In this document: in pieces, positions 5,724-56,800 of the stretch
How the letters are laid out: each line of letters begins with the position of its first letter
Numbering within the stretch: position 1 is the stretch's first letter
Assembly (NCBI GenBank): GCA_009773155.1
Contig: WOVA01000006.1
Span: 56,293 to 120,292 of the forward strand
Direction of reading: 5' to 3'
Origin: Elusimicrobiota bacterium
GTDB taxonomy: Bacteria > Elusimicrobiota > Elusimicrobia > Elusimicrobiales > UBA9959
DNA: 64,000 nucleotides
The notes under the pieces: generated by a model
What the model saw: only the letters and a program-made list of their open reading frames with translations
Told to the model about the DNA's origin: nothing
The model's database searches: none
Position numbers and translations under genes: made by a program

Positions 5724-5751
5724 AGCCGCCCGGGACCGCCGACCCTGAATA

Positions 5752-8315: not shown

Positions 8316-8316
8316 G

Positions 8317-9528
8317 ATGAACACAAAGACCGGGCTTTACGTCTTTCTCGCCGCCCTGGCGCTGCGCCTCGGCCTGCTGTTCGGCGCGCCGTCCATACCC
8401 GAGGCCTACGAACGCTTCGACGCCAAGGCCTACGAGGCCGTGGCCGTGAACCTCATGCAGGGCAACGGCTTCGTCGAAGCCCCGGGCCGGCCTACCGACG
8501 GCAGGCCCCCGGTCTACCCGCTGTTCCTGGCCGCGGTGTACTCCGTCACCGGCCACAGCGAATTTGCCGTAAGGCTGCTGCAATGCTTCATCGACTCAGG
8601 TAGCGCGGTGCTGCTCATGACCATAGCTGGACTCATCTTCCCTCCGGCCGCGGCGCTGGGAGCGGGGCTCCTGGCCGCCGCCTACCCGCCTTTCATACTT
8701 TACAGCAATATGCGCCTGACCGAATGCCTTTTTATGTTCCTTTTCCTCTGGGAGTGCCTGTTGCTGACCCGGGCCTTCAAGGAGGGCGACAGCCGCAAGT
8801 TCGCCCTGGCAGGGGTACTGCACGGCGTCGCCGTCCTCGTCAGGGCGCCGACGCTGCTTTTCCCCCTATTCCTGCTGCCCGTCATGCTCCTCAAGCGATT
8901 CCGGGGCCTGCTTAAAGGCTTCGTTCTTTACGCGGTGATAAGCACCGCCCTGATATCCGTATGGACGGTGCGGAACTATTACGCCCACGGCGGCTTCCTG
9001 GCGGTCAACACGGGCAGCGGGTGGCTGATGTGGTACGCCATACAGGACGACGCCTGGGACGGCGACAGGATAAGGGAGCTCAGTCCGCTGCGGGAATACC
9101 CGGAACTGGCGGACCTGCCTCGCCACGAGATGGAGAGCATAGTGGGCAGGAAGGTGGTAAAGTACGCGCTGACGCACCCCGTCGATTACTCGGCCAAGCT
9201 GGCCAGGAATTTCTGGCGCTTATGGACGCTTCCGGTCGGGAAAGTGATGATCTCCGAAGTCTCCCCTTTATACGGTACGCTCTACCAGGCGGGACATTTT
9301 CTGATGCTCGCCGCGGCTCTCTGCGGCCTGTTCATGGTCACGAAGGCCAATTTCATCCCCCTTCTGCCCGCGCTTATGTACCTGGCCTATGTCTCGGCAA
9401 TGCATAGCGTGATACTCGGCACTCCGAGGTACCGCCTCCCGTATGACCATTTCATGCTGATGTTCTGCTCCGCCGGCCTGGTCTTCCTGTACGGCGCCGT
9501 TAAGAAAATGCGAGGCCCCGCCCGGTGA
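8317..9528 (+). CDS. ArnT-like GT-C membrane glycosyltransferase
   Basis: FDAKAYEAVA, RPPVYPLFLA, polytopic hydrophobic pattern, PRYRLP near C-terminus. Confidence 0.75.
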   Translation: MNTKTGLYVFLAALALRLGLLFGAPSIPEAYERFDAKAYEAVAVNLMQGNGFVEAPGRPTDGRPPVYPLFLAAVYSVTGHSEFAVRLLQCFIDSGSAVLLMTIAGLIFPPAAALGAGLLAAAYPPFILYSNMRLTECLFMFLFLWECLLLTRAFKEGDSRKFALAGVLHGVAVLVRAPTLLFPLFLLPVMLLKRFRGLLKGFVLYAVISTALISVWTVRNYYAHGGFLAVNTGSGWLMWYAIQDDAWDGDRIRELSPLREYPELADLPRHEMESIVGRKVVKYALTHPVDYSAKLARNFWRLWTLPVGKVMISEVSPLYGTLYQAGHFLMLAAALCGLFMVTKANFIPLLPALMYLAYVSAMHSVILGTPRYRLPYDHFMLMFCSAGLVFLYGAVKKMRGPAR

Positions 9529-10449: not shown

Positions 10450-11808
10450 ATGATCAGGACCGGAACTTTGATAATAGGCGGCGGGCTGGCCGGACTTTCG
10501 GCGGCCATGACCCTTCGGGGCCGCAAAAAAATATTCCTCGCCGAAAAGGAGACCCGCTTCGGAGGCCTGGCGGCCACCGTGAGAAAAGGCGGCTTCCATT
10601 TCGACTATTCCGGCCATCTTCTTCATCTGCGCTGGCCCGAGACCACGCGCCTGATACTGGGCGCGCTGGGCTCCAATGTCCGCAGGATACGGCGCGACGC
10701 GCGCGTCTTCGCCCACGGCCGCTGGACGCCTTACCCCTTCCAGGCCAATCTCGCCGCCATGCCGCCGCGGGTCAGGTCCGAGTGCGTCTCGGGTTTCCTG
10801 CGCGCGCTGGCCGCCGGCGGAGGAGCGCCCGGCGACGGAACAGGGCGGCTTTGCCCGCAGTCGGTGCCGGGAGCACTGCGACCGGCCGGCAGCGAGACCT
10901 TCGATAAATGGAGCGGCCGCGTCTTCGGCGCCGGCATCTCGCGCTACTTCATGCTGCCCTACAACGCCAAGCTCTGGCAGTACCCGCTGGGCCGGCTCAC
11001 GACGGAATGGTGCGCGCCGTTCGTGCCGGTCCCCTCACCGGGCGACATAATAAAGGGGGCCTACGGCGCCGGCCGCCGCGCCATCGGCTACAACGCGGTT
11101 TTCCATTACCCGAAAAAGGGCGGCATCGGCGCTCTGGCCTCGGCCCTGGCAATGAAAGCCGGCGAGACACATCTGGGGATCGAAGCGGAGCGGGTGGACC
11201 TGCGCGCGCGCACCGCGCGCGTCCGCCACTTCGGGGAAATATCTTTCAAGCGCCTCATAAACACCGCCCCGCTCGACGAGTTCGTCGCGATGTGTTCCGA
11301 CGCCCCCGCGGCCGTGCGCCGCGCGGCGGGCCTGCTCCGCCGGAACACCGTATACGTGCTGAATATAGGCGCCAGGGGCGTTAAGTCGGATATGCACTGG
11401 GGCTATTTCCCGGGGACGGGCTTCCCCTTCTACCGCGCCGGCATCGCCAGCAACTTCTCGCGGGCGCTGGCCCCGTCCGGCGAGGCGTCCTTCTACATCG
11501 AGATAGCCACCGACGGCAGGGCGCTGGACCTGGAGTCGGCGGAGAAAGCCTGCGTCGCGGGCCTGCGGGCCTGCGGACTTATAAAGGACGCGCGGCAGGT
11601 CACGGAAAAGATGTGGCTGAAGATCCCCTGCGCCTACGTCATCTACGACGCGGACAGGGCGCGGGCCCTGCCGGTCATCTCCGGCTGGCTCAAAGAGCGC
11701 GGGGCGCGCTCCATAGGACGCTACGGGGCGTGGAAGTACTCCTTCATGGAGGAGAGCGTAAAGGAAGGCCTGGAGGCCGGCAGGGAGATCCTGGCCGGCC
11801 GGTCGTAG
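10450..11808 (+). CDS. FAD-dependent oxidoreductase (HemY/amine-oxidase/UDP-galactopyranose-mutase-like superfamily) carrying an in-frame repeat insertion
   Basis: GGGLAGL dinucleotide-binding motif, FDYSGHLL, PYNAKLW, GRYGAWKY. Confidence 0.8.
   Translation: MIRTGTLIIGGGLAGLSAAMTLRGRKKIFLAEKETRFGGLAATVRKGGFHFDYSGHLLHLRWPETTRLILGALGSNVRRIRRDARVFAHGRWTPYPFQANLAAMPPRVRSECVSGFLRALAAGGGAPGDGTGRLCPQSVPGALRPAGSETFDKWSGRVFGAGISRYFMLPYNAKLWQYPLGRLTTEWCAPFVPVPSPGDIIKGAYGAGRRAIGYNAVFHYPKKGGIGALASALAMKAGETHLGIEAERVDLRARTARVRHFGEISFKRLINTAPLDEFVAMCSDAPAAVRRAAGLLRRNTVYVLNIGARGVKSDMHWGYFPGTGFPFYRAGIASNFSRALAPSGEASFYIEIATDGRALDLESAEKACVAGLRACGLIKDARQVTEKMWLKIPCAYVIYDADRARALPVISGWLKERGARSIGRYGAWKYSFMEESVKEGLEAGREILAGRS
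10836..10889 (+). repeat. Family-1 two-hairpin repeat, in frame in the FAD oxidoreductase (GTGRLCPQSVPGALRPAG)
   Basis: cggaacagggcggctttgcccgcagtcggtgccgggagcactgcgaccggccgg matches the copies in pheS, dapF and the TPR gene. Confidence 0.9.
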
Positions 11809-11812
11809 AACT

Positions 11813-11903
11813 CGGAACAACGAGCCTCCGGCTCCACAGGTGCCGGGCGCTATGTCGCCCGGCCCCGGCACCGACAGCGGGCAATGCCGCCCTGATCCGG
11901 CCG
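11813..11903. repeat. Two family-1 repeats in opposite orientation between convergent genes (BIME-like; possible terminator)
   Basis: The + copy (11813-11862) shares its first 22 nt exactly with the pheT copy. The partial - copy (11864-11903) is the reverse complement of ggatcagggcggcattgcccgctgtcggtgccggg. Confidence 0.85.
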
Positions 11904-12826: not shown

Positions 12827-13669
12827 TTAACCGATCTCGCCTTCGAACACCAGTCGCGCCGGACCTTCTATACTGATATCCCCCGCGCCCCGTCCCGGCC
12901 GGTCGCAGTGCGCCCGGCACCGACTGCGGCGAATGCCGCCCTGATCCGACGGCGTCAGCCGGACGGTAAAATCATCCCCCCCGCGCGAGCGCAGCCGCAC
13001 CGGGGACGCGGCCGCGCCGGACAGCGCCAGCGCGACGGCCGCGGCGGTCAGGCCGGTCCCGCAGGCCGGCGTCTCGTCCTCTACGCCCCTCTCGTAGGTG
13101 CGCACCAGGACCCGCCCGTTTCTATTCTCGACGAAATCCACGTTGGCCCCGGCGCGGCCGAAGGCGCGGTGACGGCGCAGCGCGCTCCCGAGCCCGCGCA
13201 CGTCCAGCCGCCCGAGATCCTTCACCGGGACCACGGCGTGCGGCACGCCGGTATCCAGGAAGTGAACCTCTTTCACGCCGGCCGGCCAGCGGCCGGGATG
13301 GCGCAGGCTGACTTTTCTGACAGCGGGCATGCTCATGCGCGCCCTTTCTTTACCGGTTATCTCCACCGGCAGCTCCCCCCGGATGGTCGCGAGCCTGAAA
13401 CGTCGGGGAACGAGGCCGTTCATGAAAGCCCACATCGCGGCGCAGCGCGAGCCGTTGCCGCAGAAGGCCTCGGAACCGTCGGAATTGAAATAGCGCAGGG
13501 ACATGAGGCCGGGACCCGCGCGGCGGACATGCAGCAGGCCGTCTGCGCCGACGGAGAGGCGCCTGTCGCAGAGCCGGCGGGCCAGCGCGCGCAGCGCCGC
13601 CGCGCGGCGCGGCGACCCGGTTATCAGGACGAAATCATTGCCGGCTCCGGACATTTTCCAGAATTTCAT
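12827..13669 (-). CDS. dapF: Diaminopimelate epimerase with an in-frame repeat insertion near the C-terminus
   Basis: KMSGAGNDF, FCGNGSRC, DTGVPH, NVDF, ERGVEDETPACGTG, EGPARLVFEG. Confidence 0.95.
   Translation of the reverse strand: MKFWKMSGAGNDFVLITGSPRRAAALRALARRLCDRRLSVGADGLLHVRRAGPGLMSLRYFNSDGSEAFCGNGSRCAAMWAFMNGLVPRRFRLATIRGELPVEITGKERARMSMPAVRKVSLRHPGRWPAGVKEVHFLDTGVPHAVVPVKDLGRLDVRGLGSALRRHRAFGRAGANVDFVENRNGRVLVRTYERGVEDETPACGTGLTAAAVALALSGAAASPVRLRSRGGDDFTVRLTPSDQGGIRRSRCRAHCDRPGRGAGDISIEGPARLVFEGEIG
12895..12948 (-). repeat. Family-1 repeat in frame in dapF (SDQGGIRRSRCRAHCDRP)
   Basis: Reverse complement reads cggatcagggcggcattcgccgcagtcggtgccgggcgcactgcgaccggccgg. Confidence 0.9.
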
Positions 13670-14670
13670 TTCTTCTCTCCCGCCGCCCGGGCGAGGCCGG
13701 CCAGGAAGGAGCTGTCCCCTGCCGAGACGGTCTCCAGTTCCGCGGCGGCTTCGGCCGCGCGGCCAAGTCCCCTGAGCGCCAGGCCCCGGACCAGCGCCAA
13801 GGACTGATCTTCCGCCGGCAGCAGCGGGGCGGCGGCGTCCAGCGCGGCCAGCGCGCCGGCGCGGTCGCCGGCCATAAGCAGGTACATCCCCTTCTCGAAA
13901 AGAAGACCGCCGTCGCGGCAGACGGGGCCGCAGGCCTCCTCCGCCAGGCCGGCGGCGCGGGAGTAAGCGCCGGTGCGCGCGCTTACCCGGGCCATGAGCC
14001 TGGTCAGTGCCGTATCGGACGGCGCCGCGGCGCGGGCCTCGTTAAGAAGAGCCAGCGCCCCCGTGAAATCGCGCATGGACTCCAGGCAGCGGGCGTACTC
14101 GGCCATGAAAGCGGGATCCCCGCCGCCCGAGGCGCGCGCGGCGGCGTAGCCGGCCGCCGCAGACGCCAGCGCCCCCATGCCGGCGTAACTCCGGGCCAGT
14201 CCCAGGTTAAGCTGGTAGGAGGACGGATCAGGGCGGCTTTCGCCGCAATCGGTGCACGGAGCTCTGCGACGGGCCGGGTCCTTCCCGACCAGCGGGCGGT
14301 ATATCTCGGCGGCCTTGTCGTAAAAACCATTGGCCAGGTAAAGTTCGGCGAGCGCTTTCGGAAAAAGCGTGTTCTCCTGGTAAAGCGCGGCCGCCAGCCT
14401 GTAAGTGTTTATGGCCCTGTCGGGAGAGCCCAGCGCCTCATGGCATTTGCCCAGGCAGTAATAGGCCCTCTCCTTGATCTCTCGGGAGGGCCCCAGGGCG
14501 AGCAGGGAGTTTATCGAGTCCACCGCTCCGGCGCAGTCGCCGTCGTCAAGACGCGAGATAGCCGCCGCCATCAGCCTCTCGTGGGCGGGATCGGGCTTCT
14601 TCTCCCAGAGGAAGGCGGCCGACGGGGAAACCGCCAGAAGCAGCAGGAGGGCGGCGGGGCAGAGCCTCAT
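13666..14670 (-). CDS. Exported tetratricopeptide-repeat protein with an in-frame repeat insertion
   Basis: Signal peptide MRLCPAALLLLLAVSPSAA (start re-called to 14670); TPR motifs AYYCLGKCHEALG, LAELYLANG. Confidence 0.75.
   Translation of the reverse strand: MRLCPAALLLLLAVSPSAAFLWEKKPDPAHERLMAAAISRLDDGDCAGAVDSINSLLALGPSREIKERAYYCLGKCHEALGSPDRAINTYRLAAALYQENTLFPKALAELYLANGFYDKAAEIYRPLVGKDPARRRAPCTDCGESRPDPSSYQLNLGLARSYAGMGALASAAAGYAAARASGGGDPAFMAEYARCLESMRDFTGALALLNEARAAAPSDTALTRLMARVSARTGAYSRAAGLAEEACGPVCRDGGLLFEKGMYLLMAGDRAGALAALDAAAPLLPAEDQSLALVRGLALRGLGRAAEAAAELETVSAGDSSFLAGLARAAGEKK
14224..14277 (+). repeat. Family-1 repeat, antisense and in frame in the TPR gene (PARRRAPCTDCGESRPDP)
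   Basis: cggatcagggcggctttcgccgcaatcggtgcacggagctctgcgacgggccgg. Confidence 0.9.
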
Positions 14671-28058: not shown

Positions 28059-28105
28059 TTTATTATATATTTTGATTATAATACTACGATAGACCGCATC
28101 AGCGG

Positions 28106-28130
28106 GGGACACCATGCGGCATGGTGTCCC
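28106..28130. repeat. Family-2 palindrome GGGACACCATG-CGG-CATGGTGTCCC (perfect 11-bp stem)
   Basis: Near-identical copy at 56774-56800 and a degenerate copy at 49148-49174. Confidence 0.85.
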
Positions 28131-28168
28131 GGTACCATTTGCCGCCGCGCTTTCTCGTTTATTATTAC

Positions 28169-33535: not shown

Positions 33536-34242
33536 TGCTTACAAAACATATCTGGGGCCTGCTGCTTAACGCGCTGCTGCCGCGCACCTGCGCGCATTGC
33601 GCCGAGGACCTGCCTGCCGGCACGGAGCAGCCGCTGTGTGGGGCCTGCCTCACTTCGCTTGAGCGCCCGGCCGGGCCCCTGTGCCCGGTCTGCGGCCTGC
33701 CCGGCGCGGACGGCCCCTGTCCCGCCTGCCGGGAGGCCCCCCGCCCCTTCGACCTGGCCCGCTCAGCCTTCCTGTTCACCCCCCCGCTGCGCTCGCTGAC
33801 CCACGCTTTCAAGTACTCGGGCAGGACCTCCCTGGCCCGGCCGCTGGCGCTGCTGATGGCGGCGGAACTGCCGCGCTGCCCGGAGCTGGGGACTTTCGAC
33901 GCCGTGGTGCCGGTGCCTCTGCACCCGTCGCGCGAGCGCCGGCGCGGCTACAACCAGGCCGCGCTGCTGGCGCGGGAACTGGCGGGGCTGTCGGGCTCTT
34001 CTTTCGAACCGGGAGCGGTGAGGCGCGTCCGCGAGACGCGGCCGCAGGTGGACCTGCGCAGGCGGGAGAGACTGGAGAACGTGCGGGGGGCTTTTGAGGC
34101 GGGGCCCGGGGCGAAGGGCCGCCGCTTCCTGGTGGTGGACGACGTGGCCACCACGCTGGCCACGGCCGGCGACGCGGCGCGGGCGCTCAAAGAGGCCGGC
34201 GCGGCGGGGGCCGCGGTCTTCACGCTGGCCCGCGAAGCGTAA
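33535..34242 (+). CDS. comF: ComF family protein (double zinc ribbon + PRTase)
   Basis: CAHC/CGAC/CPVC/CPAC, VPLHPSR..RRGYNQ, VVDDVATT. Confidence 0.85.
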   Translation: MLTKHIWGLLLNALLPRTCAHCAEDLPAGTEQPLCGACLTSLERPAGPLCPVCGLPGADGPCPACREAPRPFDLARSAFLFTPPLRSLTHAFKYSGRTSLARPLALLMAAELPRCPELGTFDAVVPVPLHPSRERRRGYNQAALLARELAGLSGSSFEPGAVRRVRETRPQVDLRRRERLENVRGAFEAGPGAKGRRFLVVDDVATTLATAGDAARALKEAGAAGAAVFTLAREA

Positions 34243-41149: not shown

Positions 41150-41183
41150 ATATCGCACCCCTTTCCACCTATTGTACAAAAGC

Positions 41184-42368
41184 TCAGCCCAGCTCCTTCA
41201 TCAGCTCGCGGCGCATAGCGTCGCGGGTCTCCATGCCCGGCAGACCTTCGAGGGCCAGCAGGCCGTTCATGAAATAATCCGCGGCTTCCGCCTTCCCTTT
41301 GGCCGCCTTGAAATAACGCCCCGCCTCCAGCCAGATACGCGGTTCGTCGCGCTCGAAAGAGAGCGCCATCGCGAATATTTCCCCGGCGTCCTCCTCCCCC
41401 GCGCCCGCCGCCTTAAGCGCCCGGCCCAGCAGCCTCTCCCCCTCCGCCCGCGCGGCGCCGCGCGAAAAGACCGGCGGCAGATCCGCCGCGCCGGCCGCCG
41501 GCTCCAGTTTGTCGATCTCAAGTGCGCGCCGCGCGGCCTTCTCATATGCCAGTTCCGCCGAAGCGAAAGCCGGGCCCTGCGCGCCGCCTTTGGGCTGTAC
41601 GGCAAACAATACGCGCCAGGCCAGCGCCGCTCCGCCGCAATGGGCCAGCAGCGAGGCCGCGACAGACTCTTTCTTAGCGGCCTCTCCCATGAGTTCGATC
41701 GCCAGCCGCGCGACGGCCGGGGCGGCGGCGATGGTCAGTACGCCCGCGGCATCCCCCTTCAGCGTCATGGCGCAGGCCCGGTCGACGGCCTCGTCGCGCG
41801 CGGAAGAGAGTTCTTCGCGCGAAAAATCCTCCAGCCCGGCCTTCATCACGGCCTTGCGCAGGGAGGCCAGGCAGGCGGCGGCCCTGTCCTCCTCGTGCCG
41901 CCGCAGCTCGAAGCGCAGCGCCGCCCGGCCGGGATGGTAGGTCCTGCTTTCCGTCGAAATTATATCGAAGCCGGCCCTGCGGGCCAGTTCTTTGAGCAGT
42001 TCCTCCGGGAAGGCGTAGCGGTGGCCCATGCCGGCGGTCTCGGCGCCGTATATCCAGCCCAGCTGCGCTTCGCGCTCCTCCGGCCCCCTGGCGCCGGCGA
42101 AAGCCGCGCAGGTCTTTATGATGTCGGGCGTCTCTATGACCAGCCGGCCGCCGGGCCGCAGGACACGGAAACATTCCGAAAGGAAATATCTCGTCCTGAA
42201 ATAACCGAGATGCTCGACCAGGTGAAGGGCCTCTATCTCCCGCGCGCAGCCGTCGGACAGGTCCAGGTTCTCCGCCGGCATGACCTTGTCGGCGGCCGAG
42301 CCGGCGGAAGAATCGATATTGACCCAGCCGGTCCGCCGGTCGTTCCCGCAGCCGATATTAAGTTTCAC
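41184..42368 (-). CDS. SAM-dependent methyltransferase (type 11-like) with helical C-terminal domain
   Basis: KLNIGCG, HLVEHL, RVLRPGG..IETPD. Confidence 0.75.
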   Translation of the reverse strand: MKLNIGCGNDRRTGWVNIDSSAGSAADKVMPAENLDLSDGCAREIEALHLVEHLGYFRTRYFLSECFRVLRPGGRLVIETPDIIKTCAAFAGARGPEEREAQLGWIYGAETAGMGHRYAFPEELLKELARRAGFDIISTESRTYHPGRAALRFELRRHEEDRAAACLASLRKAVMKAGLEDFSREELSSARDEAVDRACAMTLKGDAAGVLTIAAAPAVARLAIELMGEAAKKESVAASLLAHCGGAALAWRVLFAVQPKGGAQGPAFASAELAYEKAARRALEIDKLEPAAGAADLPPVFSRGAARAEGERLLGRALKAAGAGEEDAGEIFAMALSFERDEPRIWLEAGRYFKAAKGKAEAADYFMNGLLALEGLPGMETRDAMRRELMKELG

Positions 42369-47801: not shown

Positions 47802-49210
47802 TATTTCTCCCCCCGCAGCCGGCGCAGCCGCCGGGCTATCTCGGCCTCGAAGCCCTGCTCGGTCGGTTCGTAGAAGCGCCGCGGCTCCGGCATATATTCC
47901 TGCGCGACATAATGGCCGTCGAAATCGTGCGGGTATTTATATCCCTTGCCGTGGCCGAAGGCCTCGCCGTCCCTGGACGCGTCGCGCAGGTGCAGCGGCA
48001 CGGCCCGCTCGGCGCCGCCGCGCACCTCGGACTGCGCCTCGTTTATGGCCAGGTAGGCGGCGTTGGACTTGGGCGAACAGGCGACATAGATGGCGGCCTG
48101 GGCCAGCGGGATGCGGCCCTCGGGCATGCCCAGCGAGGCGACGGCCGAGAATGCGGCCTGCGCTATAAGCAGGGCGTTGGGATTGGCGTTGCCCACGTCC
48201 TCGGCGGCGCAGATGAGTATGCGCCGCGCCAGGAAGCGGGGATCCTCGCCGGCTTCCAGCATTTTAGCCAGCCAGTAGACGGCGGCGTCGGGGTCGGAGC
48301 CGCGCATGGACTTAATGAACGCGGAGGCGTGGTCGTAATGCTCGTCGGCGCTCTTGTCGTAGCGCAGCGAGCGGCGCTGTATGGACTCTTTCGCCACCCC
48401 TATGTCGACATGCCGCTTGCCGCCCTTGCCCTGCGGCGTGGTCACCGCCGCCAGCTCTATGGCGTTGAGCAGCCGCCTGGCGTCGCCCGAGGAGTTCTCC
48501 ACGAAATATTTCTCCGCCTCGGGAGTGAGTTCGGGCCGCAGCGCGGCCAGGCCCTTCTCGTCGGAGAGGGCGCGGCGCAGCACTTTGCGCAGGGCCTCGG
48601 GCTCCAGCGGCTTGAACTCGAACACCAGGAAGCGCGAGAGCAGTGCGGAGTTTATGTAGAAATACGGGTTCTCGGTGGTAAGGCCGATAAGTACGATATC
48701 GCCCTTCTCCACGGAGGGCAGGAGGGCGTCCTGCTGGGTGCGGTTGAAATGGTGTATCTCGTCCAGGAGCAGCAGCGAGGCCGGTCGTATAACTCCCGGC
48801 ACCTGTGGCGCCGGAGGCACTGTTCCGACCGGCGCCAGGCCCGCCTCCTTCAGAGCGCGGGCGGCCTCGAGTATCTTCTTGAGCTCGGCCACGCCGGCGG
48901 TGACGGCGTTGAGCTCGAAGACCCGCGCTTTGGTGCGCGAGGCTATGAGCCGGGCGGTGGCCGTCTTGCCGCAGCCGGAAGGGCCGTAGAAGACGGCCGA
49001 GCGGACATTGTCGGATTCTATGGCGCGGCGCAGCAGCTTGCCTTCGGCCAATATATGCTCCTGGCCGGCGAACTGCTCCAGCGCGGACGGGGCGAGCCGG
49101 GCCGCCAGCGGCGACTGCCGCCGCTCCGCCTCCCCTCCGGCCTCGTCGGGGACGCCATGCCGCGCGGGGTCCCCCGCCGATGCGGGCGTTTCGAACAGGG
49201 ATTCTTCCAT
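47801..49210 (-). CDS. rarA: Replication-associated recombination protein A (MgsA) with repeat-derived insertions
   Basis: GQEHIL, GPSGCGKT, DEIHHFN, TTENP, HYDHASAFIKSMRGSDPDAA, EDVGNA. Confidence 0.95.
   Translation of the reverse strand: MEESLFETPASAGDPARHGVPDEAGGEAERRQSPLAARLAPSALEQFAGQEHILAEGKLLRRAIESDNVRSAVFYGPSGCGKTATARLIASRTKARVFELNAVTAGVAELKKILEAARALKEAGLAPVGTVPPAPQVPGVIRPASLLLLDEIHHFNRTQQDALLPSVEKGDIVLIGLTTENPYFYINSALLSRFLVFEFKPLEPEALRKVLRRALSDEKGLAALRPELTPEAEKYFVENSSGDARRLLNAIELAAVTTPQGKGGKRHVDIGVAKESIQRRSLRYDKSADEHYDHASAFIKSMRGSDPDAAVYWLAKMLEAGEDPRFLARRILICAAEDVGNANPNALLIAQAAFSAVASLGMPEGRIPLAQAAIYVACSPKSNAAYLAINEAQSEVRGGAERAVPLHLRDASRDGEAFGHGKGYKYPHDFDGHYVAQEYMPEPRRFYEPTEQGFEAEIARRLRRLRGEK
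48779..48827 (-). repeat. Family-1 repeat in frame in rarA (GTVPPAPQVPGVIRPA)
   Basis: Reverse complement reads cggaacagtgcctccggcgccacaggtgccgggagttatacgaccggcc. Confidence 0.8.
49148..49174. repeat. Degenerate family-2 palindrome within the rarA N-terminal extension (GDPARHGVP)
   Basis: ggggacgccatgccgc is identical over 16 nt to the reverse complement of 56774-56800. Confidence 0.6.
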
Positions 49211-49211
49211 C

Positions 49212-49514
49212 TTAAAGCGGTCCGGGACCGAGGGCCTCTTTGAGGCCGGCCGCCAGCTCGTCTATCTTGCGGGAATCGGCGGCGCGCAGGTCCTTGGACT
49301 TGTGTTCCAGGTTGAAGAGCTCGGCCGCGAAGTGCATCGCGGCCAGGATGGCCAGCTTCTGCGTGTCCACGCGCTTGAGGCCGGGCTCCAGCTCGGTCAT
49401 CTTCTCCTCGACCTGCTGGGCGATGGCGGCCACCTCCATGGGGGTGAGGCCCTCCATGGCTATATTGAGCTTGACGCCCTTTACGGTTACTTCCGTCTCG
49501 TCCTTCTGCATCAT
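49212..49514 (-). CDS. zapA: Cell division protein ZapA
   Basis: VTVKG...IAQQVEEKM...DTQKLAILAAMHFA. Confidence 0.8.
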   Translation of the reverse strand: MMQKDETEVTVKGVKLNIAMEGLTPMEVAAIAQQVEEKMTELEPGLKRVDTQKLAILAAMHFAAELFNLEHKSKDLRAADSRKIDELAAGLKEALGPGPL

Positions 49515-49774
49515 TCTTCGTCCAGACCGTCGAACAGGAAGCCCTGCCGGCTGGAGGCTTTCTCGATCTTCTCGCAGAGGCGGGCCAGCCGCTTTTTAAG
49601 CTTTTTCCGGGCCTCTTCGGCCGCGGGGCCGCGGCCGGCTTTCATGAGTTTGGTCCTGTCGGCCGCGTAGCTCTCCACCTGCTTGCGCAGCAGGGCGTTC
49701 TCGTCCTCCAGCGCCTTTATGCGGGAGATGGCGGTCTTTACCAGGCCGTCCAGGGTCTTGATACCTGCGTTCAT
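49511..49774 (-). CDS. Short coiled-coil protein (ZapB-like by position)
   Basis: Heptad pattern (RIKALEDENALLR); directly upstream of and overlapping zapA. Confidence 0.55.
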   Translation of the reverse strand: MNAGIKTLDGLVKTAISRIKALEDENALLRKQVESYAADRTKLMKAGRGPAAEEARKKLKKRLARLCEKIEKASSRQGFLFDGLDEE

Positions 49775-49925
49775 CAGTCCCCATTATATAAAAGATATAT
49801 ACGCGAGGGCCCGGGTCCGCGGCGGCATGAGACCTATATAAAAATGGGCCTTTGAACCGTGGCGGGGCCTCCCGGGAAAGGGTATAACATAGGTGAAGGA
49901 ACAGCGGAGTCTACGGAGGAATCAC

Positions 49926-50948
49926 ATGAAGCGTCTGAACAGAATGGTATCCGGGATAGCGGCCCTGGCCTTTATCCTGCCCTCTTTCGCGCGTGCGGAA
50001 GACAAGAGCATTTACGGCGACGACAACCGCCTCGACTATTTCGAAGCGCCGGCCGACATGAAAGAGCTGGCCAGGTCCGTGGTCTCGCTCTGGAAGAACG
50101 AGCATGTGCGCGTGGACGGCGGCACGGCCCGCGTGGCGACCGCCAATTTCGGGGAAGCGGTAGGACTTTGTCCCTCCGAAAGGTTCCGCGAGCAGCCCGT
50201 GGGCGCCTTCTGCTCCGGCTCCCTGGTGGGCGAGGACCTGGTCATGACGGCCGGCCACTGCATAGTGGACGAAGCCCAGTGCGCCGACACCCGGCTGGTC
50301 TTCGGCTACGCGGTGACCGAGCGGGGCAAGGCCGCCAACACCACCGTGCCCGCCGCCGACGTCTACTCCTGCAAGAAGATCATAAAGCGCGACCTGGACA
50401 AGCCCCCGACGGGCACCGTCGGCCTCATAGGCGCGATAGTCGGCAATATACTCGACACCACCGGCCCCGACTACGCCCTGATACAGCTCGACCGCAAAGT
50501 CACCGACCGCCGGCCGCTGCCTATCAACCGCGGCTCGAAGGTCAAGCAGGGGACCGGGGTTTTCGTCATAGGCCACCCCGTGGGCCTGCCGCTCAAAGTG
50601 GCCGGCGATGCCCGGGTGCGCTCCTCCAAGTTCATGCGCGCCCACTTCACCGCCGACCTCGACACCTTCGGCGGCAACTCCGGTTCGCCGGTGTTCAACG
50701 TTAAGACGAAGAAGATCGAGGGCATATTGGTGCGCGGCGGCACGGACTTCGTAAAGTCCCCCGAGGGCTGCACCGTGTCCTACAGCGTCGGCCAGAACGA
50801 CGGCAAGGGCGAGGCCGTGACGCATGTCTCGGTGCTCAAGGACTACATCCCGTCCTTCAAGTCCGCTCCCGAGACCTCCAAACTGGTGGAGCTCTCCCCC
50901 GAGGACACGGAGTTCGAGCCGCTCGAGCGGACCGTCAGCTTCGATTAA
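49926..50948 (+). CDS. Exported trypsin-like (S1/V8-type) serine protease
   Basis: TAGHC, DYALIQL, GGNSGSP catalytic triad; GGAGGA SD before ATG 49926; signal peptide. Confidence 0.9.
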   Translation: MKRLNRMVSGIAALAFILPSFARAEDKSIYGDDNRLDYFEAPADMKELARSVVSLWKNEHVRVDGGTARVATANFGEAVGLCPSERFREQPVGAFCSGSLVGEDLVMTAGHCIVDEAQCADTRLVFGYAVTERGKAANTTVPAADVYSCKKIIKRDLDKPPTGTVGLIGAIVGNILDTTGPDYALIQLDRKVTDRRPLPINRGSKVKQGTGVFVIGHPVGLPLKVAGDARVRSSKFMRAHFTADLDTFGGNSGSPVFNVKTKKIEGILVRGGTDFVKSPEGCTVSYSVGQNDGKGEAVTHVSVLKDYIPSFKSAPETSKLVELSPEDTEFEPLERTVSFD

Positions 50949-51003
50949 GCCGCAATACGCGATCGGGATAGGAGCGGCGACATGCGGGTCCGCATCCGGC
51001 GGT

Positions 51004-51345
51004 TCAATCGTCCAGCAAAACGTCGAGTTTCTTTAAGACTTCCGCCAGGGTTGCTCCTGGAATCCGGCAACAGAATCGGGCGCCTCTGGCCTGCCAATCC
51101 AGACTTTTGACCTGGTCAGCCAGGACGACTCCGGAAGCCTTCAGGCCGGAGGGGATGGAAATCTCGAAAGGATAACCCTTTGCCTGCGTAGTGATGGGGC
51201 AGAAGACGGCAAGCCCCGCTTTCCGGTTATAGGCCTCGGGAGAAAGAGCCAAAGCCGGTCTATAACCCGTCTGCTCATGCCCTGCCTGAGGCGCAAAGGA
51301 CAGCCAGACAACATCGCCACGCTTCGGGCAATAAGGACTGGGCAT
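51004..51345 (-). CDS. mazF: MazF/PemK endoribonuclease toxin
   Basis: PKRGDVVWLSFAPQAGHEQTGYRPALALSP, PITT, DQVKSLDW; start overlaps the mazE stop (TAATG). Confidence 0.93.
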   Translation of the reverse strand: MPSPYCPKRGDVVWLSFAPQAGHEQTGYRPALALSPEAYNRKAGLAVFCPITTQAKGYPFEISIPSGLKASGVVLADQVKSLDWQARGARFCCRIPGATLAEVLKKLDVLLDD

Positions 51346-51587
51346 TACCAAATTTCCCGTCCGGCCGCGCCGCCGCAATTCTGTTCGGAGTGGCGATTGT
51401 TTTTGGTGATGCCCTTGAGCATATGTGAGAGCGGGATTTTGCACTGCCCCTTAGGCTTTACAACCATCTCGCCTTCTATCACTACCACTTCAACCATGGA
51501 GCCCTGGCGTAAATGAATATCCCTGGCAAAAGCGCTTGGAATACGCAACGCCAGGCTGTTTCCCCATTTTTGAACGATTGTGGTCAT
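51345..51587 (-). CDS. mazE: MazE/AbrB antitoxin
   Basis: VQKWGNSLALRIP...GREIW. Confidence 0.93.
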   Translation of the reverse strand: MTTIVQKWGNSLALRIPSAFARDIHLRQGSMVEVVVIEGEMVVKPKGQCKIPLSHMLKGITKNNRHSEQNCGGAAGREIW

Positions 51588-51599
51588 AACACCCTCCGT

Positions 51600-51642
51600 A
51601 TGTATCTACATTGAGTATACATTAACTTCAGAAGATTGTCAA
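51600..51642 (-). promoter_or_regulatory. Sigma70 promoter of mazEF with overlapping palindromic operator
   Basis: TTGACA (51637-51642), 17 nt, TATACT (51614-51619); imperfect palindrome ATGTAT...ATACAT at 51600-51622; GGAGGG SD. Confidence 0.8.
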
Positions 51643-51665
51643 GGCCTTGCCGGCAAAAAAACAGG

Positions 51666-54107
51666 TCAGCCGCGCAGTTTCGCCCCGAAGGAGGCTTCCA
51701 GTTTCTTAAGCGCCTTCTCCATGCGGGAATTGACGTCGGCGTCGGTCATCGTCCTCTCCATGGCGGAGAAAGTGAACCGCAGCGTGAGGCTGCGCTGGCC
51801 CTCGGGCACGCCCTTGCCCTTGTAAACATCTATGAGGTCCAGCCGGGCCAGGTCAGGCAGGGAAAAGAGGTCCTTCTCCATTTCCGCCCATTCGCGCTTA
51901 TCGTCGACCAGCACCGAGAGGTCGCGCCAGGCGGCGGGGTAAGACGACACGGGTTTAACCTGCGGCACCCGGTCGCGGAAAGAGCCCTTCCAGGACTCGG
52001 CCAGCGAGGAGAGGGTTATCTCGAAATAATAGACCTGCGTGTCCTTGAGATCGCTGTTGATGACGGCCATCGGGTCGGCCAGGCCCAGTACGCCGGCCTC
52101 GCCCGCTCCGAGCTTCATGACCAGCGCCGCGCCCTCCTGCAGGAAGGCGGGCCTATGCTTCGGCTTCTCGAAACGGAAGCCGCGCCGGCCGCCGAAAACG
52201 GCCTGCATGACGCCCTTTAAATGGTAGAAATCCGACATCTCGGAGCCGCCGCGCCAGTGCTGCTCCTCGGGGAAAGGGCCGTACGTCAGTCCGGCGCAGA
52301 CGCGCTCTTCCTTCCTGCCGTCCTTCGTCTTATGATACACCGTGCCGGTCTCGAAAACAGCGACCGAGGTCCGGCCGCGGTTGAGATTGTAGCGCAGGGT
52401 CCTGAGCAGTCCCGGCAGAAGCGAAACGCGCAGATACTGGTAATCCGAAGAAAGCGGATTGAGCAGTTCCACCGCCTGCGTCTCGTCGAGCAGGCAGTTG
52501 CGGAAATCCTTGAGCGGGACCAGATCGTAGTTGTACACCTCTGAGAAACCAAGGGCGGCCAGGCGTCCTCGCAGCTCGGCCTCGGCCTCCGCCAGGGGCG
52601 TGGACGAGGCGGGCATGACGGGCATCGACGAGGCCGAAGGGATGAGGTCGTAACCGTTGTAGCGCGCGGCTTCCTCGGCCAGGTCCTGGACGTTCTCTAT
52701 GTCGCGCCTGTAGGAAGGCGGCGTGAACTGCCAGGGCTTCTCCGGCGAAAGCTCCGGCTGTATGGCCTTGAGGCAGGCGAAGATCTTCTCGTCGGTCATC
52801 GCCGTCCCCAGTATCGCGTTTATGCGCGCGGGGTCGGCGGCAACCACCGGCAGGCGGGGCGGTTCGGGGAAATTGTCGCTGACCTGCTCCACCCCGGCCG
52901 ACGGGACGGCCTCCAGCAGCAGCCCCGCTATGCGGCGGGCGGCCTTCATCGTAAGTTCGATGTCGGTGCCGCGCTCGAAGCGGTAGGACGACTCGCTCTT
53001 TATGCCGCTCTTGCGGGACGAGGCCCGCACGGCGGACTGAGCGAAAGAGGCGGACTCTATGAGTACGGAATCGGTAGTATCGGCGACGGAGGAATAGAAG
53101 CCGCCCATGACGCCGGCCAGCGCCACCGGCTTCTCCCGGTCGGCTATGACCAGCGTGCCGGCGGCGAGCCTGAGCTCGATGCCGTCGAGCGCTTTCATGC
53201 TCTCGCCGTCGGACGACGGGCGCACCTTTATTTCGGGACCGGCGAGGTTGGCCAGGTCGAAACAATGCGTCGGCTGGCCCAGCTCGTACATGACGTAGTT
53301 GGAAACGTCTATAAGGAGATTGCCCTTGGGATTGGAGCCCATAGCGCGCAGCCGCGCGGCCATCCAGTCCGGCGTCTTCGCGCCTTCAAGGCCTTTCATC
53401 ACTACGGCGGTATAGCGCGGGCAGAGGCAGGGATCCGTTACGGAGACCGGCGCGACGGTGCCGGCGGACTTAGGCAGTTCCGTCAGGACCGGTTCCCTGA
53501 ATTTAAGCCCGTAGAAGACGCAGAGCTCGCGGGCCAGCGCGTAATGGGAAAGGCAGTAGGACAGGTTGGGCGTTATCTCCAGCTCGAACACCCAGTCCGG
53601 CAAGGCGACATGGCGCCTTGCACTTGATGAGCCGGAGGCTCGTTGTTCCGGCGGGGCGAAAAGCGCGCGCGCGTCGGCGCCCAGCGGCGCGGACGGGTCC
53701 AGCACGAGTATGCCGGAATTATCGTAACCCTCCAGGCCCAGTTCCCCCGCCGAGCAGATCATGCCCTCGGACTCGACGCCGCGTATCTTCGCTTTTTTAA
53801 GCTCGCCCTCGGCGAGCACGGCCCCGACGCGGGCGAAAGGTATCAGCTGGCCGACGGCGATATTTTTGGCGCCGCAGACCACGCGCATCGTCGCCGCGCC
53901 GTCGCTGACGTCCACCAGCGAAAGTTTGTCGGCGTTGGGGTGCCTGTCTATTTTGTCGATGCGGCCTACAACCACGCCGGTGACGGCGGCGCCGCTGCGG
54001 CCCGCGCTCTCGACGCCCAGACCCAGCCGCGCGAACTTGCCGGGCAGTTCCTCCGCCGGGGGCGGGGTCTCGATGAAATCGCAGAGCCAGGAATAAAGTA
54101 TTTTCAC
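51666..54107 (-). CDS. pheT: Phenylalanine--tRNA ligase beta subunit with an in-frame repeat insertion
   Basis: HPNADKL, RGVESEGMICS, ITPN, SYRFERG, YRRDI..QDLAEE, FDX-ACB C-terminus; GTG start 54107 overlaps the pheS stop. Confidence 0.96.
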   Translation of the reverse strand: MKILYSWLCDFIETPPPAEELPGKFARLGLGVESAGRSGAAVTGVVVGRIDKIDRHPNADKLSLVDVSDGAATMRVVCGAKNIAVGQLIPFARVGAVLAEGELKKAKIRGVESEGMICSAGELGLEGYDNSGILVLDPSAPLGADARALFAPPEQRASGSSSARRHVALPDWVFELEITPNLSYCLSHYALARELCVFYGLKFREPVLTELPKSAGTVAPVSVTDPCLCPRYTAVVMKGLEGAKTPDWMAARLRAMGSNPKGNLLIDVSNYVMYELGQPTHCFDLANLAGPEIKVRPSSDGESMKALDGIELRLAAGTLVIADREKPVALAGVMGGFYSSVADTTDSVLIESASFAQSAVRASSRKSGIKSESSYRFERGTDIELTMKAARRIAGLLLEAVPSAGVEQVSDNFPEPPRLPVVAADPARINAILGTAMTDEKIFACLKAIQPELSPEKPWQFTPPSYRRDIENVQDLAEEAARYNGYDLIPSASSMPVMPASSTPLAEAEAELRGRLAALGFSEVYNYDLVPLKDFRNCLLDETQAVELLNPLSSDYQYLRVSLLPGLLRTLRYNLNRGRTSVAVFETGTVYHKTKDGRKEERVCAGLTYGPFPEEQHWRGGSEMSDFYHLKGVMQAVFGGRRGFRFEKPKHRPAFLQEGAALVMKLGAGEAGVLGLADPMAVINSDLKDTQVYYFEITLSSLAESWKGSFRDRVPQVKPVSSYPAAWRDLSVLVDDKREWAEMEKDLFSLPDLARLDLIDVYKGKGVPEGQRSLTLRFTFSAMERTMTDADVNSRMEKALKKLEASFGAKLRG
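53597..53650 (-). repeat. Family-1 repeat in frame in pheT (PEQRASGSSSARRHVALP)
   Basis: Reverse complement reads cggaacaacgagcctccggctcatcaagtgcaaggcgccatgtcgccttgccgg. Confidence 0.85.
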
Positions 54108-55300
54108 AGCTGTTTCCAGACGCGCAGGTCGTTCTCGTAGAACATGCGCATGTCTTTTATACCGAAGAGGAGCATGGCGAAGCGCTCCACGCCCGCGCCG
54201 AAGGCGAAGCCGCTCCACTTCTCGGGGTCGTGGCCGCAGGCCTTGAGCACGTTGGGGTGCACCATGCCCGCGCCAAGCATCTCAAGCCACCCCGTGCCCT
54301 TGCAAATGGGACAGCGTTCGGACTTGCCGGAACAGCCGCTCTGCGGCCCCAGGTGCACGGAGCTATGCGACGTGCCGCCGCAGAAGACGCAGGAGATCTC
54401 AACCTGCGCGCCGGGCTCGACGAAAGGGAAATAGGTAGGCGCGAAGCGCACCCTGGCGGAGGAGCCGAAAAGATCCTTGATGAAGGCGTCCAGCGTCCAG
54501 CGCAGGTCGGCCATGCTGACGGACCTGTCGACGTAGAGGCCCTCCACCTGGTGGAAGACGAAAGAGTGGCTGGCGTCCACGGCCTCGGAGCGGAAGACGC
54601 GGCCGGGCGAGATGATGCGCAGCGGCAGGGCGGCACCTTTCATGGAGCGTATCTGCACCGGCGAGGTATGCGTGCGCAGCAGCATATCCTTGCCGGAGGC
54701 GTCCTTCACTCCCGCGTAGAAGGTATCCTGCATATCCCGGGCCGGATGGTCGGCCGGGAAGTTGAGGGCTTCGAAATTGAAGTGATCTTCCTCGACGTGC
54801 GGACCCTCGGCAACCGAGAACCCCAGCTTCATAAGGGAGGCGGTGACGCGGTCCATCGCCTGAGTTATCGGGTGCAGGCTGCCTTTGGGAAAAGGGCGGC
54901 CCGACAGCGTAAGGTCCAGCCCGGCAGAGGCCTTCGCCCCCCCCCCGGCCGGATCAGGGCGGCTTTTGCCGCTGTCGGTGCCGGGAGCACTGCGACCGGC
55001 CGGATCAGGGCGGCTTTTGCCGCTGTCGGTGCCGCAAGCTCTGCGCGCGGCCAGCTCGGCCTTCTTGGCTTCCAGGGCGGCGACCAGGCGGCCTTTGAGC
55101 TCGTTGCCCAGGCGTCCCAGTTCTTTCTTCTCTTCTATGGTGAATGAGCCCAGGTCGCGCAGCAGCAGGGCGAGCTCGCCCTTGCGGCCGAGGAACTGCA
55201 GCTCGACTTCGGCTATATTGTCGGAAGCGGCCCCGGAAATGGCGGAGGAGAAGCTCTCGCCCACGCGAGACAGCTTCTCCTTCCACTCGGACGCGTTCAT
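54104..55300 (-). CDS. pheS: Phenylalanine--tRNA ligase alpha subunit with three repeat-derived insertions
   Basis: GSLHP, NFEALNFPADHPARDMQDTF, LRTHTSPVQ, FHQVEG, FPFVEP, GAGMVHP. Confidence 0.97.
   Translation of the reverse strand: MNASEWKEKLSRVGESFSSAISGAASDNIAEVELQFLGRKGELALLLRDLGSFTIEEKKELGRLGNELKGRLVAALEAKKAELAARRACGTDSGKSRPDPAGRSAPGTDSGKSRPDPAGGGAKASAGLDLTLSGRPFPKGSLHPITQAMDRVTASLMKLGFSVAEGPHVEEDHFNFEALNFPADHPARDMQDTFYAGVKDASGKDMLLRTHTSPVQIRSMKGAALPLRIISPGRVFRSEAVDASHSFVFHQVEGLYVDRSVSMADLRWTLDAFIKDLFGSSARVRFAPTYFPFVEPGAQVEISCVFCGGTSHSSVHLGPQSGCSGKSERCPICKGTGWLEMLGAGMVHPNVLKACGHDPEKWSGFAFGAGVERFAMLLFGIKDMRMFYENDLRVWKQL
54325..54378 (+). repeat. Family-1 repeat, antisense and in frame in the pheS CxxC...CxxC loop (TSHSSVHLGPQSGCSG)
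   Basis: 54 bp identical to 55338-55391. Confidence 0.92.
54945..55052 (+). repeat. Two tandem family-1 repeats (51-bp period) in frame in the pheS linker
   Basis: ccggccggatcagggcggcttttgccgctgtcggtgccg occurs twice; protein GTDSGKSRPDPAG x2. Confidence 0.95.
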
Positions 55301-55337
55301 GCCTGTCCGCCGGCCCTCAGGCCAATGCGTGCGCAGG

Positions 55338-55391
55338 TGCCGGAACAGCCGCTCTGCGGCCCCAGGTGCACGGAGCTATGCGACGTGCCGC
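55338..55391 (+). repeat. Family-1 repeat, intergenic between rplT and pheS
   Basis: tgccggaacagccgctctgcggccccaggtgcacggagctatgcgacgtgccgc, identical to the copy inside pheS. Confidence 0.92.
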
Positions 55392-55408
55392 ATCAAGAGC
55401 TATGCTCA

Positions 55409-55774
55409 TCAGGCGGCCGCCGGGGTCAGGGCTTTTTTGGCCAGTTCCGCGATCTGCTTGAAGGACGCCGGGTCCTTGAGCGCGATCTCGGAAAGCATCT
55501 TGCGGTTGATGTCGATATTGGCCTTCTTGAGGCCGTTCATGAATTTGCTGTAGGACAGTCCCTCTTCGCGGGCGGCCGCGTTCAGGCGCATGATCCAGAG
55601 CTGGCGCATGTCGCCCTTGCGGTCCTTGCGGTGCTCGTAGGCGACGGCAAGGGACTTCTTGACCTGCTGGGTCGCCATCCTGAGGCGGTTCTTCTTGTTG
55701 GCGTAATAGCCCTTGGCGAGCTTGAAGATCTTCTTCTTGCGCTTGTTCCTTGCGACGCTGTATTTTATCCTCAT
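55409..55774 (-). CDS. rplT: 50S ribosomal protein L20
   Basis: AKGY, YEHRKDRKGDMRQLWIMRLNAA, YSKFMNGLKKANI.INRKMLSE. Confidence 0.96.
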   Translation of the reverse strand: MRIKYSVARNKRKKKIFKLAKGYYANKKNRLRMATQQVKKSLAVAYEHRKDRKGDMRQLWIMRLNAAAREEGLSYSKFMNGLKKANIDINRKMLSEIALKDPASFKQIAELAKKALTPAAA

Positions 55775-56773: not shown

Positions 56774-56800
56774 GGGGACACCATGCGGCATGGCGTCCCC
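56774..56800. repeat. Family-2 palindrome upstream of infC
   Basis: ggggacaccatgcggcatggcgtcccc, with the stem extended by gggct/agccc. Confidence 0.85.

Follow-up and report, generated by a model that had tools for sequence, protein, structure and literature searches.

The 64-kb window analysed here, a stretch of 64,000 nucleotides from contig WOVA01000006.1 of an Elusimicrobiota bacterium (assembly GCA_009773155.1; ~64% G+C), carries 11 solid copies of one short repeat, each 48 or 51 nt in length. Eight of the copies lie in frame within coding sequences (an amine oxidase gene, dapF, a tetratricopeptide-repeat (TPR) gene, rarA, pheT and, three times, pheS), and three are intergenic, the surrounding genes being assigned by Pfam. 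The copies form two clusters, with five at 10.8-14.3 kb and six at 48.7-55.4 kb (Table 1). They were detected by a direct-repeat search, by nhmmer and by a covariance model built from 40 copies, which, with filters off, gives E-values between 7e-16 and 6e-7 for all 11 copies of the window, far beyond chance. A weaker match to the model at 33878-33932 (E 0.08) was rejected, as no hairpins were found on inspection.

The unit has a regular anatomy. Its left end reads GGAWCAG and is followed, 8-10 nt from that end, by hairpin 1, with a 5-bp stem and a loop of 3-4 nt. A 7-nt linker ending in a conserved GGT connects this to hairpin 2, in which an outer stem of 5 bp, the GA/GA internal loop and an apical stem of 2 bp make up nine positions and enclose a loop of 3 nt; one C follows hairpin 2, so that the unit closes in GCC. 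Several unpaired features are conserved, namely the GGT linker, the GA/GA loop and the NCT loop. The length is a multiple of three in every copy, and the repeat is nearly free of stop codons.

The coding copies of the window use four of the six reading frames and both orientations, four in the sense of the gene and four opposite to it. As a preliminary description of this DNA had stated, the encoded peptides are unrelated between frames; the rarA copy adds a VGTVPPAPQVPGVIRPA-like peptide. Among copies in related loci (L numbers), 22 of 54 are coding by a strict open-reading-frame filter, 14 in gene orientation and eight opposite; the window dapF and TPR copies failed this filter and are assigned as coding by Pfam. 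In an AlphaFold2 model of PheS, the predicted local distance difference test score (pLDDT) falls below 50 over residues 91-133 and 310-327, precisely where the two insert sites lie, a drop partly due to an alignment that holds no information there. The zinc-knuckle copy sits between two CxxC pairs, and the PheS orthologues P0002 and P0003 are without it. A PheS protein from another Elusimicrobia genome (P0024; alignment A1, columns 370-419) carries an unrelated insert of ~50 aa in the same loop, which suggests that this loop is a generally permissive site.

Table 1. Positions of the repeat copies and of one empty site in the 64-kb window (E, E-value from the covariance model)
Feature	Length (nt)	Position	Strand	Setting	E	Comparison with relatives
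Flavin amine-oxidase-family gene copy	51	10837..10887	+	in frame; Pfam	9e-15	clean 51-nt indel vs L096, L098, L099
dapA/amine-oxidase spacer copy	51	11797-11813 + 11865-11898	-	provides the amine oxidase stop codon		
Nested copy	51	11814-11864	+	splits hairpin 2 of the oppositely oriented spacer copy 11797..11898(-)		
dapF copy	51	12897..12947	-	in frame near C-terminus	3e-15	clean 51-nt indel vs L096, L098, L099
TPR-repeat gene copy	51	14225..14275	+	in frame, opposite orientation	9e-15	51-nt indel vs L096, L098
Empty site in window		41387..41388	-			orthologous gene in L080 (93% identical) has a 51-nt copy exactly there
rarA/mgsA copy	48	48779..48826	-	in frame; RarA Pfam domains	2e-12	clean 48-nt indel vs L094, L095
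pheT copy	51	53599..53649	-	in frame	6e-7	clean 51-nt indel vs L094, L095
pheS zinc-knuckle copy	48	54329..54376	+	in frame, opposite orientation	7e-13	48-nt indel vs L094, L095
pheS tandem copy 1	51	54951..55001	+	in frame, N-terminal linker, head-to-tail pair	7e-16	
pheS tandem copy 2	51	55002..55052	+	second of head-to-tail pair	5e-9	
rplT-pheS spacer copy	48	55342..55389	+	intergenic		part of 95-nt composite insertion absent from relatives

Filled and empty sites

The repeat is recently and repeatedly inserted. Comparison with ~1 Mb of related DNA yields precise filled/empty pairs at 11 sites, nine with the insert in the window and two with the insert in relatives and an empty site in the window's strain. 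L092 and L093, which derive from other samples, are 99.95-100% identical to the window over 44.1-64 kb, minus exactly one pheS tandem unit, and P0001 likewise has one unit fewer. At ~90% identity, L094 and L095 are without all six copies of 48.7-55.4 kb, the indels measuring 48 nt in rarA, 51 nt in pheT, 48 nt at the pheS zinc knuckle, 102 nt at the pheS tandem and 95 nt, a composite, in the rplT-pheS spacer. L096, L098 and L099 (80-87% identical) are in turn without all five copies of 10.8-14.3 kb, with three indels of 51 nt (amine oxidase, dapF, TPR) and one of 102 nt that corresponds to the nested pair in the dapA spacer; this spacer spans 7-17 nt in relatives. L019 has a copy at an MltA-family gene site where the window's strain (L092) is empty. 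The lengths of PheS orthologues match the inserts exactly, with 398 aa in the window, 381 aa in relatives with one unit fewer (96% identical) and 348 aa in those with none of the three units (76-81% identical).

In ~78 kb of orthologous DNA of close relatives, the covariance model finds no copy, and these relatives carry copies elsewhere in their genomes; turnover is therefore fast and lineage-specific. Filled sites are not common to deeper relatives, unlike what would be predicted if the empty sites were deletions from a filled ancestor. Further signs of a DNA element are the nested copy, the tandem pairs and the presence of identical coding and intergenic copies 1 kb apart, the rplT-pheS spacer copy having the same sequence as the pheS zinc-knuckle copy. 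The two pheS tandem units are not simple duplicates of each other, as their hairpin 1 halves are identical and hairpin 2 differs at six positions. Members of the family are found in metagenomes and across many metagenome-assembled genomes of Elusimicrobia; assemblies that carry it include JAVHLJ01, JAVVFK01, DNQL01, JAGVVD01 and JADJZR01.

In the composite insertion of the rplT-pheS spacer (55300-55420), a full element is bordered by fragments similar to portions of other copies, namely CAGGTGCC to one side and GAGCTATGCTC and CATCAGGCGGCC to the other. At this insertion, rplT of the window has gained one codon before its stop.

Each filled/empty pair leaves a positional ambiguity of 0-6 nt, and all events can be described with one definition, GGAWCAG...GCC, whose boundary was chosen within the range of the microhomology. 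With this definition, C occupies -1 in every window copy (11/11) and in every copy of the independent sample (18/18), the base at -3 is G in 10 of the 11 window copies, and GG often follows the element. The target C is already present in seven of eight empty sites. GNC^GG is the favoured target; it resembles the junction GCC|GGA formed where two units stand head to tail, which explains the tandem pairs. No fixed-length target duplication is seen, since the filled/empty pairs show variable microhomology of 0-6 nt (GCCGGA at pheT, TGCCG at pheS, CGG at the amine oxidase and at the MltA-family gene of L019/L092, GGCCG at the dapA spacer). Nor are there terminal inverted repeats, the ends GGAWCAGG and GACCGGCC not being inverted repeats of each other.

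Pairing in the two hairpins

The preliminary description had claimed that the stems of the repeat keep their pairing through compensatory changes, and the arm variants on which it relied are all present in the copies. These are the hairpin 2 outer stems GCCGG/CCGGC, GCACG/CGTGC, GCCGC/GCGGC and GCAAG/CTTGC, the hairpin 1 variants GCGGC/GCCGC, GAGCC/GGCTC, GCCGC/GCGGC and GTGCC/GGCGC, the GT/AC apical pair in rarA and the GA/GA internal loop; the single hairpin 2 mismatch it had reported in the TPR copy is an A.G (GCACG/CGGGC). The rarA copy thus combines hairpin 1 GTGCC-TCC-GGCGC with hairpin 2 GCCGG-GA-GT-TAT-AC-GA-CCGGC, and the pheS zinc-knuckle copy combines GCCGC-TCT-GCGGC with GCACG-GA-GC-TAT-GC-GA-CGTGC. 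The pheT copy belongs to a subtype in which hairpin 2 is a perfect 8-bp stem (GCAAGGCG/CGCCTTGC), with GAGCC-TCC-GGCTC as hairpin 1 and a DNA fold z of -3.35. In the second pheS tandem copy, a compensated G-C to C-G swap (GCCGC/GCGGC) is accompanied by an AA/GC internal loop.

Covariation is found in both hairpins. In an alignment of 40 sequences, 97.5% of hairpin 2 cells are paired, five of seven pairs show changes on both sides, and the covariation score is reached by none of 500 shuffles; pairing falls to 23-54% when the partners are slid by 1-3 columns. A model-based alignment of 52 sequences gives 98.5% pairing, again with two-sided changes in 5/7 pairs and 0/500 shuffles, and the range for slid partners over both alignments is 18-58%. 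Because many copies descend from few master sequences, copy genealogy was handled by collapse to distinct haplotypes, with each arm pair counted once. On this count, the distinct arm pairs that pair fully number 10 of 12 for hairpin 2 (permutation p<5e-5) and seven of 12 for hairpin 1 (p~3e-4).

About half of the covariation sample was fetched by a pattern that fixes GA/GA and the apical positions, and a second sample was for this reason drawn with hairpin 1 as its only anchor, making it unbiased for hairpin 2. In this sample hairpin 2 still folds, and a new compensated arm pair, GCCAC/GTGGC, appears. The internal loop is either GA/GA or Watson-Crick (GC/GC, AC/GT, GC/GT or, as a stem without mismatches, GCCGCGCTC/GAGCGCGGC). 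Hairpin 2 thus behaves throughout as a single helix, and tandem G.A pairs are among the states it allows.

The two-hairpin arrangement is the minimum-free-energy DNA fold in 8/9 window copies. RNAalifold, applied to a MAFFT alignment, recovers hairpin 2 and misses hairpin 1, because subtypes differ by 3 nt around the latter; hairpin 1 was therefore parsed by its position relative to hairpin 2. The GA/GA loop and the G.T pairs exist on one strand only, and a strand-specific pairing test that sets G.T against A.C gives ~3 against 1, a ratio based on few events. At gathering score, the Rfam covariance models match tRNAs alone in the window, and no family matches the repeats with E relaxed to 5; a relaxed-E Rfam search of the flagged span and five related loci returned only tRNAs and chance matches.

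Together, the covariation of two stems, the use of four frames and both orientations, and the occurrence of intergenic copies of the same sequence support a constraint that acts on pairing and not on the peptide. The preliminary description is borne out to this extent; the recent mobile insertion, evident from the precise empty sites in close relatives, had escaped it. Given these empty sites, the 'selection' is most simply for the element's own spread, not for a host function.

Mobilization and competing explanations

The repeat is very probably a non-autonomous mobile selfish palindromic element with structure-constrained hairpins. Copies that land in surface loops or linkers are tolerated and read as 16-17 extra residues in any frame, because the unit is 3n long and nearly stop-free. 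The stems would be kept since only copies in which both hairpins can fold are mobilized. The constraint would then act on propagation of the element and not on host function, with the covariation reflecting selection among element lineages for a mobilizable fold.

The IS200/IS605 'peel and paste' elements have subterminal hairpins, are devoid of terminal inverted repeats and are handled as single strands by HUH tyrosine transposases. By analogy, the hairpins of the present repeat may be read on single-stranded DNA by a trans-acting enzyme, for which a HUH tyrosine (Y1) transposase of the IS200/IS605 or RAYT kind would be the leading candidate. Cleavage by such an enzyme would fall behind the GNC of the target and behind the GCC that ends the element, and the GA/GA mismatches, together with the invariant GGT that precedes hairpin 2, are candidates for the features recognized. 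Recognition of this type fits the anatomy of the unit, with its subterminal hairpins at both ends, its short target and its lack of inverted ends and of duplication. We hold the assignment to a HUH-type enzyme only tentatively; the explanation as a whole, in which the mobile element carries more weight than the enzyme, we consider probable.

Several observations weigh against this explanation. At most sites, microhomology of 0-6 nt blurs the exact point of insertion, which leaves room for a microhomology-driven route. No transposase or nuclease was found by Pfam on most of the predicted genes of the window, and tblastn with an approximate IS200 TnpA sequence found no match in the ~0.8 Mb examined, a weak negative given that RAYTs are divergent and that this DNA covers the genomes only in part. 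IS200/IS605 elements are usually biased to one replication strand. The window copies show no clear strand bias, with seven on the plus and four on the minus strand under a uniform negative GC skew, and the 14:8 gene-relative split of the wider sample is not significant. Independent compensatory events are fewer than copies, as there are few master sequences, with ~10 paired hairpin 2 states and seven hairpin 1 states. Single-copy folding energies are not exceptional for base composition; they lie modestly below those of dinucleotide shuffles (z -0.2 to -3.4), so that the advantage over G+C-matched shuffles expected in the preliminary description is present but weak. Since any 50-mer of 70-75% G+C folds, folding energy does not discriminate, and the case rests on covariation and the shared fold, not on stability.

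The first two of these points bear on a route in which the repeat spreads without a dedicated hairpin-reading transposase, either through microhomology-mediated template switching or replication slippage at GCC/GG, or through a site-specific recombinase acting on the GCC|GGA core. The hairpins would then matter only by promoting polymerase stalling or strand exchange. Beyond the microhomology between element ends and target, and the empty searches for a transposase, this route would suit the likeness of the target to the element's own junction and the occurrence of tandem and nested copies; CGTC-type repetitive extragenic palindromes (REPs) have also been reported without a dedicated transposase (PMC3733652). 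However, the rarA and nested-copy events have at most 1 nt of microhomology, and unit length and end points are identical in all events, unlike the products of sloppy copying. The conserved unpaired GGT linker, GA/GA and NCT loop also suggest sequence-specific recognition. We consider such transposase-free spread unlikely.

The compensatory changes could alternatively be a product of mutation, with intra-strand template switching in quasi-palindromes copying one arm from the other in the absence of any functional constraint. Conversion of GA/GA into Watson-Crick pairs, giving perfect stems of 8-9 bp, is what such copying predicts, and it is seen in the pheT and nested copies and in L069, L104, L110 and L114. 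Yet GA/GA persists in 48 of 53 copies, across ~9 outer-stem states, in a sample partly selected by the GA/GA-fixing pattern, and the unbiased sample shows just two kinds of loop, GA/GA and paired, with no random ones. G.T wobbles occur in L008, L058 and rarA, the 3-nt loop and the linker are conserved, and the fixed distances of hairpin 1 and hairpin 2 from the ends are left unexplained. Arm-to-arm template switching could contribute to the 'compensation'; as the explanation for it, it appears improbable.

A host function in RNA, in which the repeat is an mRNA stabilizer, a processing site, a translation pause site or the site of an RNA-binding protein and the covariation reflects this role, is less probable still. 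All coding copies are transcribed, REPs downstream of genes can stabilize mRNA (PMC3733652), and as RNA the GA-bearing strand of a type A copy folds 6.6 kcal/mol better than its complement. Against this stand the use of both gene orientations (14 same and eight opposite among the 22 filtered coding copies, and 4 vs 4 in the window), the dispensability of every window copy in close relatives, the lack of any Rfam match, and the unrelated positions of the copies within genes. The RNA-binding or processing factor that the preliminary description had offered as a possible reader of the fold is disfavoured by the same two orientations relative to transcription.

A selected linker or loop peptide, with the DNA similarity secondary, would account for coding copies that are all in frame, stop-free and located in loops or linkers, but is excluded by the four frames with their unrelated peptides and by intergenic copies identical in DNA, a verdict shared by the orthologues without inserts, the predicted disorder of the inserted segments and the chance expectation, at 70-75% G+C, of 17 codons without a stop (estimated at ~0.8).

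Known elements, the wider family and other repeats

By analogy, the mobile palindromic element proposed here is a new family of a known kind, extending to a new phylum the phenomenon represented by the Rickettsia palindromic elements (RPEs) and by intragenic REPs. RPEs were reportedly described by Ogata et al. in 2000. In common with them, the repeat is palindromic selfish DNA found in frame in functional, often essential genes whose orthologues are without the insert. It also shares with them the use of different frames, the location in surface loops, the occurrence of both genic and intergenic copies, and the lack of a known transposase. RPE-1-type elements are, however, ~100-150 bp long and A+T-rich, reside in an obligate intracellular alphaproteobacterium and have sequences called unrelated, whereas the present unit measures 48-51 nt, is ~75% G+C, contains two separate hairpins, inserts after C and has turned over recently in free-living Elusimicrobiota. 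Judged by composition, size and host, homology to RPEs is very unlikely, and they serve as an analogue, not as the same family.

RPEs were discussed alongside REPs by Di Nocera et al. 2013 (PMC3733652). Intragenic REPs were described in Opitutus terrae, Thauera and others, and some REP units lie inside genes, including replication and repair genes; REPs are thought to be mobilized as single-stranded hairpins by HUH Y1 transposases, the RAYTs, and mismatches near the loop are needed for RAYT cleavage of the E. coli REP (PMC3733652). Like the GTAG and CGTC REPs, the repeat is an imperfect palindrome that is short, rich in G+C and multicopy, with conserved stem mismatches and subtypes whose stems are compensated. 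Unlike them, it contains two different hairpins in fixed order, and not a single hairpin or an inverted dimer. GTAG REPs are mainly extragenic, in contrast to the genic majority of the window copies, and no RAYT flanked by repeats is seen in the window. The GTAG tag itself occurs on neither strand of the consensus or the subtypes, which sets the repeat outside the GTAG superfamily. CGTC REPs are characterized by the CGTC tag, A/T at the first two stem positions, an 8-9-bp stem, a 4-5-nt loop and a CCA-like tail (PMC3733652). The present unit has no A/T pairs at the foot of its stem, a 3-nt loop and no CCA tail; CGTC is found only on the complementary strand of variants with the CGGGC arm, and the complement of hairpin 2 reads GG(C/G)GTCGC. 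The element does not belong to the CGTC superfamily.

Subterminal hairpins at both ends, without terminal inverted repeats or target duplication, are shared with the IS200/IS605 elements and their miniature derivatives (PATEs), as are insertion directly 3' of a short specific sequence and a similar sequence closing the right end. The unit is, however, far smaller than known PATEs, and no tnpA/tnpB partner with matching ends was found in ~1 Mb of related DNA. Transposable elements of the miniature inverted-repeat type (MITEs) that extend or interrupt reading frames, such as the Coxiella QMITEs (PMC5896051) and the Neisseria Correia elements, are also non-autonomous, read through in frame and able to alter proteins. 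In contrast to these, the repeat has neither inverted ends nor a fixed target duplication, and is thus not a MITE. A literature search for its core sequence strings returned unrelated primers only.

These comparisons extend the 'selfish DNA inside proteins' phenomenon of Rickettsia to a free-living, uncultured phylum, in the form of an element that is unusually small, always 3n in length and cleanly defined, with a clean target rule and a high genic share in essential genes. Within 64 kb there are eight in-frame inserts, four of them in the two phenylalanyl-tRNA synthetase subunits, and all are younger than ~10% sequence divergence. Such inserts inflate and diversify the protein sequences of metagenome-assembled genomes, break assemblies, and confuse orthology and domain boundaries. 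The family also acts as a natural test of which loops in proteins can accommodate 16-17 random residues, and its precise ends, target rule and covarying hairpins offer a concrete substrate for finding the mobilizing enzyme.

A pattern scan indicates a link beyond the phylum. All 19 fixed positions of the hairpin 2 motif GGTGC-NNG-GAGC-NNT-GCGA-CNN-GCC match an otherwise unrelated-looking actinobacterial repeat, a hairpin of ~45 nt in Janibacter, Marihabitans, Marmoricola and Aeromicrobium (Intrasporangiaceae, Nocardioidaceae; loci L001, L002, L009, L010, L013, L015, L018-L023, L029, L030, L032, L036, L038, L040, L042, L043, L048-L050, L052, L054, L056, L059, L061, L063, L065, L068, L071, L079 and L083). 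An example reads GGTCGA-GGTGCGAGGAGCTCTGCGACGAGCC-TCGAGACC. The repeat contains three tandem GA motifs, occurs in tandem arrays of 39-41 nt and has no Rfam match; its outer stems are compensated (GGTC/GACC, CCCT/AGGG, GGTT/AACC, CCCC/GGGG), as is an inner G-C to C-G swap. The likeness may point to a shared, undescribed recognition system. One speculative and rather doubtful possibility is that the hairpin 2 helix around tandem G.A pairs marks a third REP-like superfamily beside GTAG and CGTC, read by a conserved hairpin-specific enzyme, of which one branch would have been miniaturized to a 3n, two-hairpin, coding-tolerant unit. Matches of the scan in Actinomadura represent one conserved coding site and not a repeat, and singleton matches in other phyla were taken as chance.

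Within the Elusimicrobia, a mostly intergenic variant occurs in the metagenome-assembled genome JADJZR01 and its relatives (L006, L016, L034, L044, L045, L047, L053, L057, L084). Its two-hairpin core starts with CGCATCAG in place of CGGAWCAG and lies between CCCTCACCCTGCCCTC and TCCCAAGAGGAGAGGG arms in a longer composite. Four copies (L025:3645-3723, L055:4269-4347, L057:3550-3639, L081:1487-1576) have an extra insert of 21-35 nt in the loop of hairpin 1; these inserts recur in two forms, and one form folds into a small hairpin of its own, CCTCGC-TTT-GCGGGG.

Another family of palindromic repeats, GGGGACACCATGC|GGCATGGTGTCCCC, which GCATCGGCG / CGCCGATGC often flank, is present in the window (28105-28131, 56774-56800, 49148-49173) and in relatives (L033:5238-5264, L092:557-583, L109:2871-2897 and 3286-3312). 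Compared with L094 and L095, its degenerate copy at 49148-49173 is an insertion of 24 nt, in frame, at the N-terminus of rarA, and at least two repeat families therefore invade coding sequence in this genome. An intergenic segment of 180 nt in the 93%-identical relative L080 (6206-6385), absent from the window at 41183-41189, may be another small mobile element. Just downstream of pheT, a small MazE/AbrB-type antitoxin-like gene (51345-51587; L092:13663-13905) is present in the window's strain (L092, L093) and does not appear in the gene calls of the relatives L094 and L095 there. The coding signal of an 1804-aa open reading frame at 28121-33535 is strong (GC3 0.89), and Pfam gives it no match at E<=1e-5. 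Three paralogous radical-SAM genes, two with B12-binding domains, occupy 2766-9528, interleaved with a heptosyltransferase and a PMT-family glycosyltransferase, and the direct repeats D8, D16, D18 and D19 stem from these paralogues and not from the mobile element described above. Outside these limits, the cluster is flanked by a further PMT-family gene and by SAM methyltransferases.

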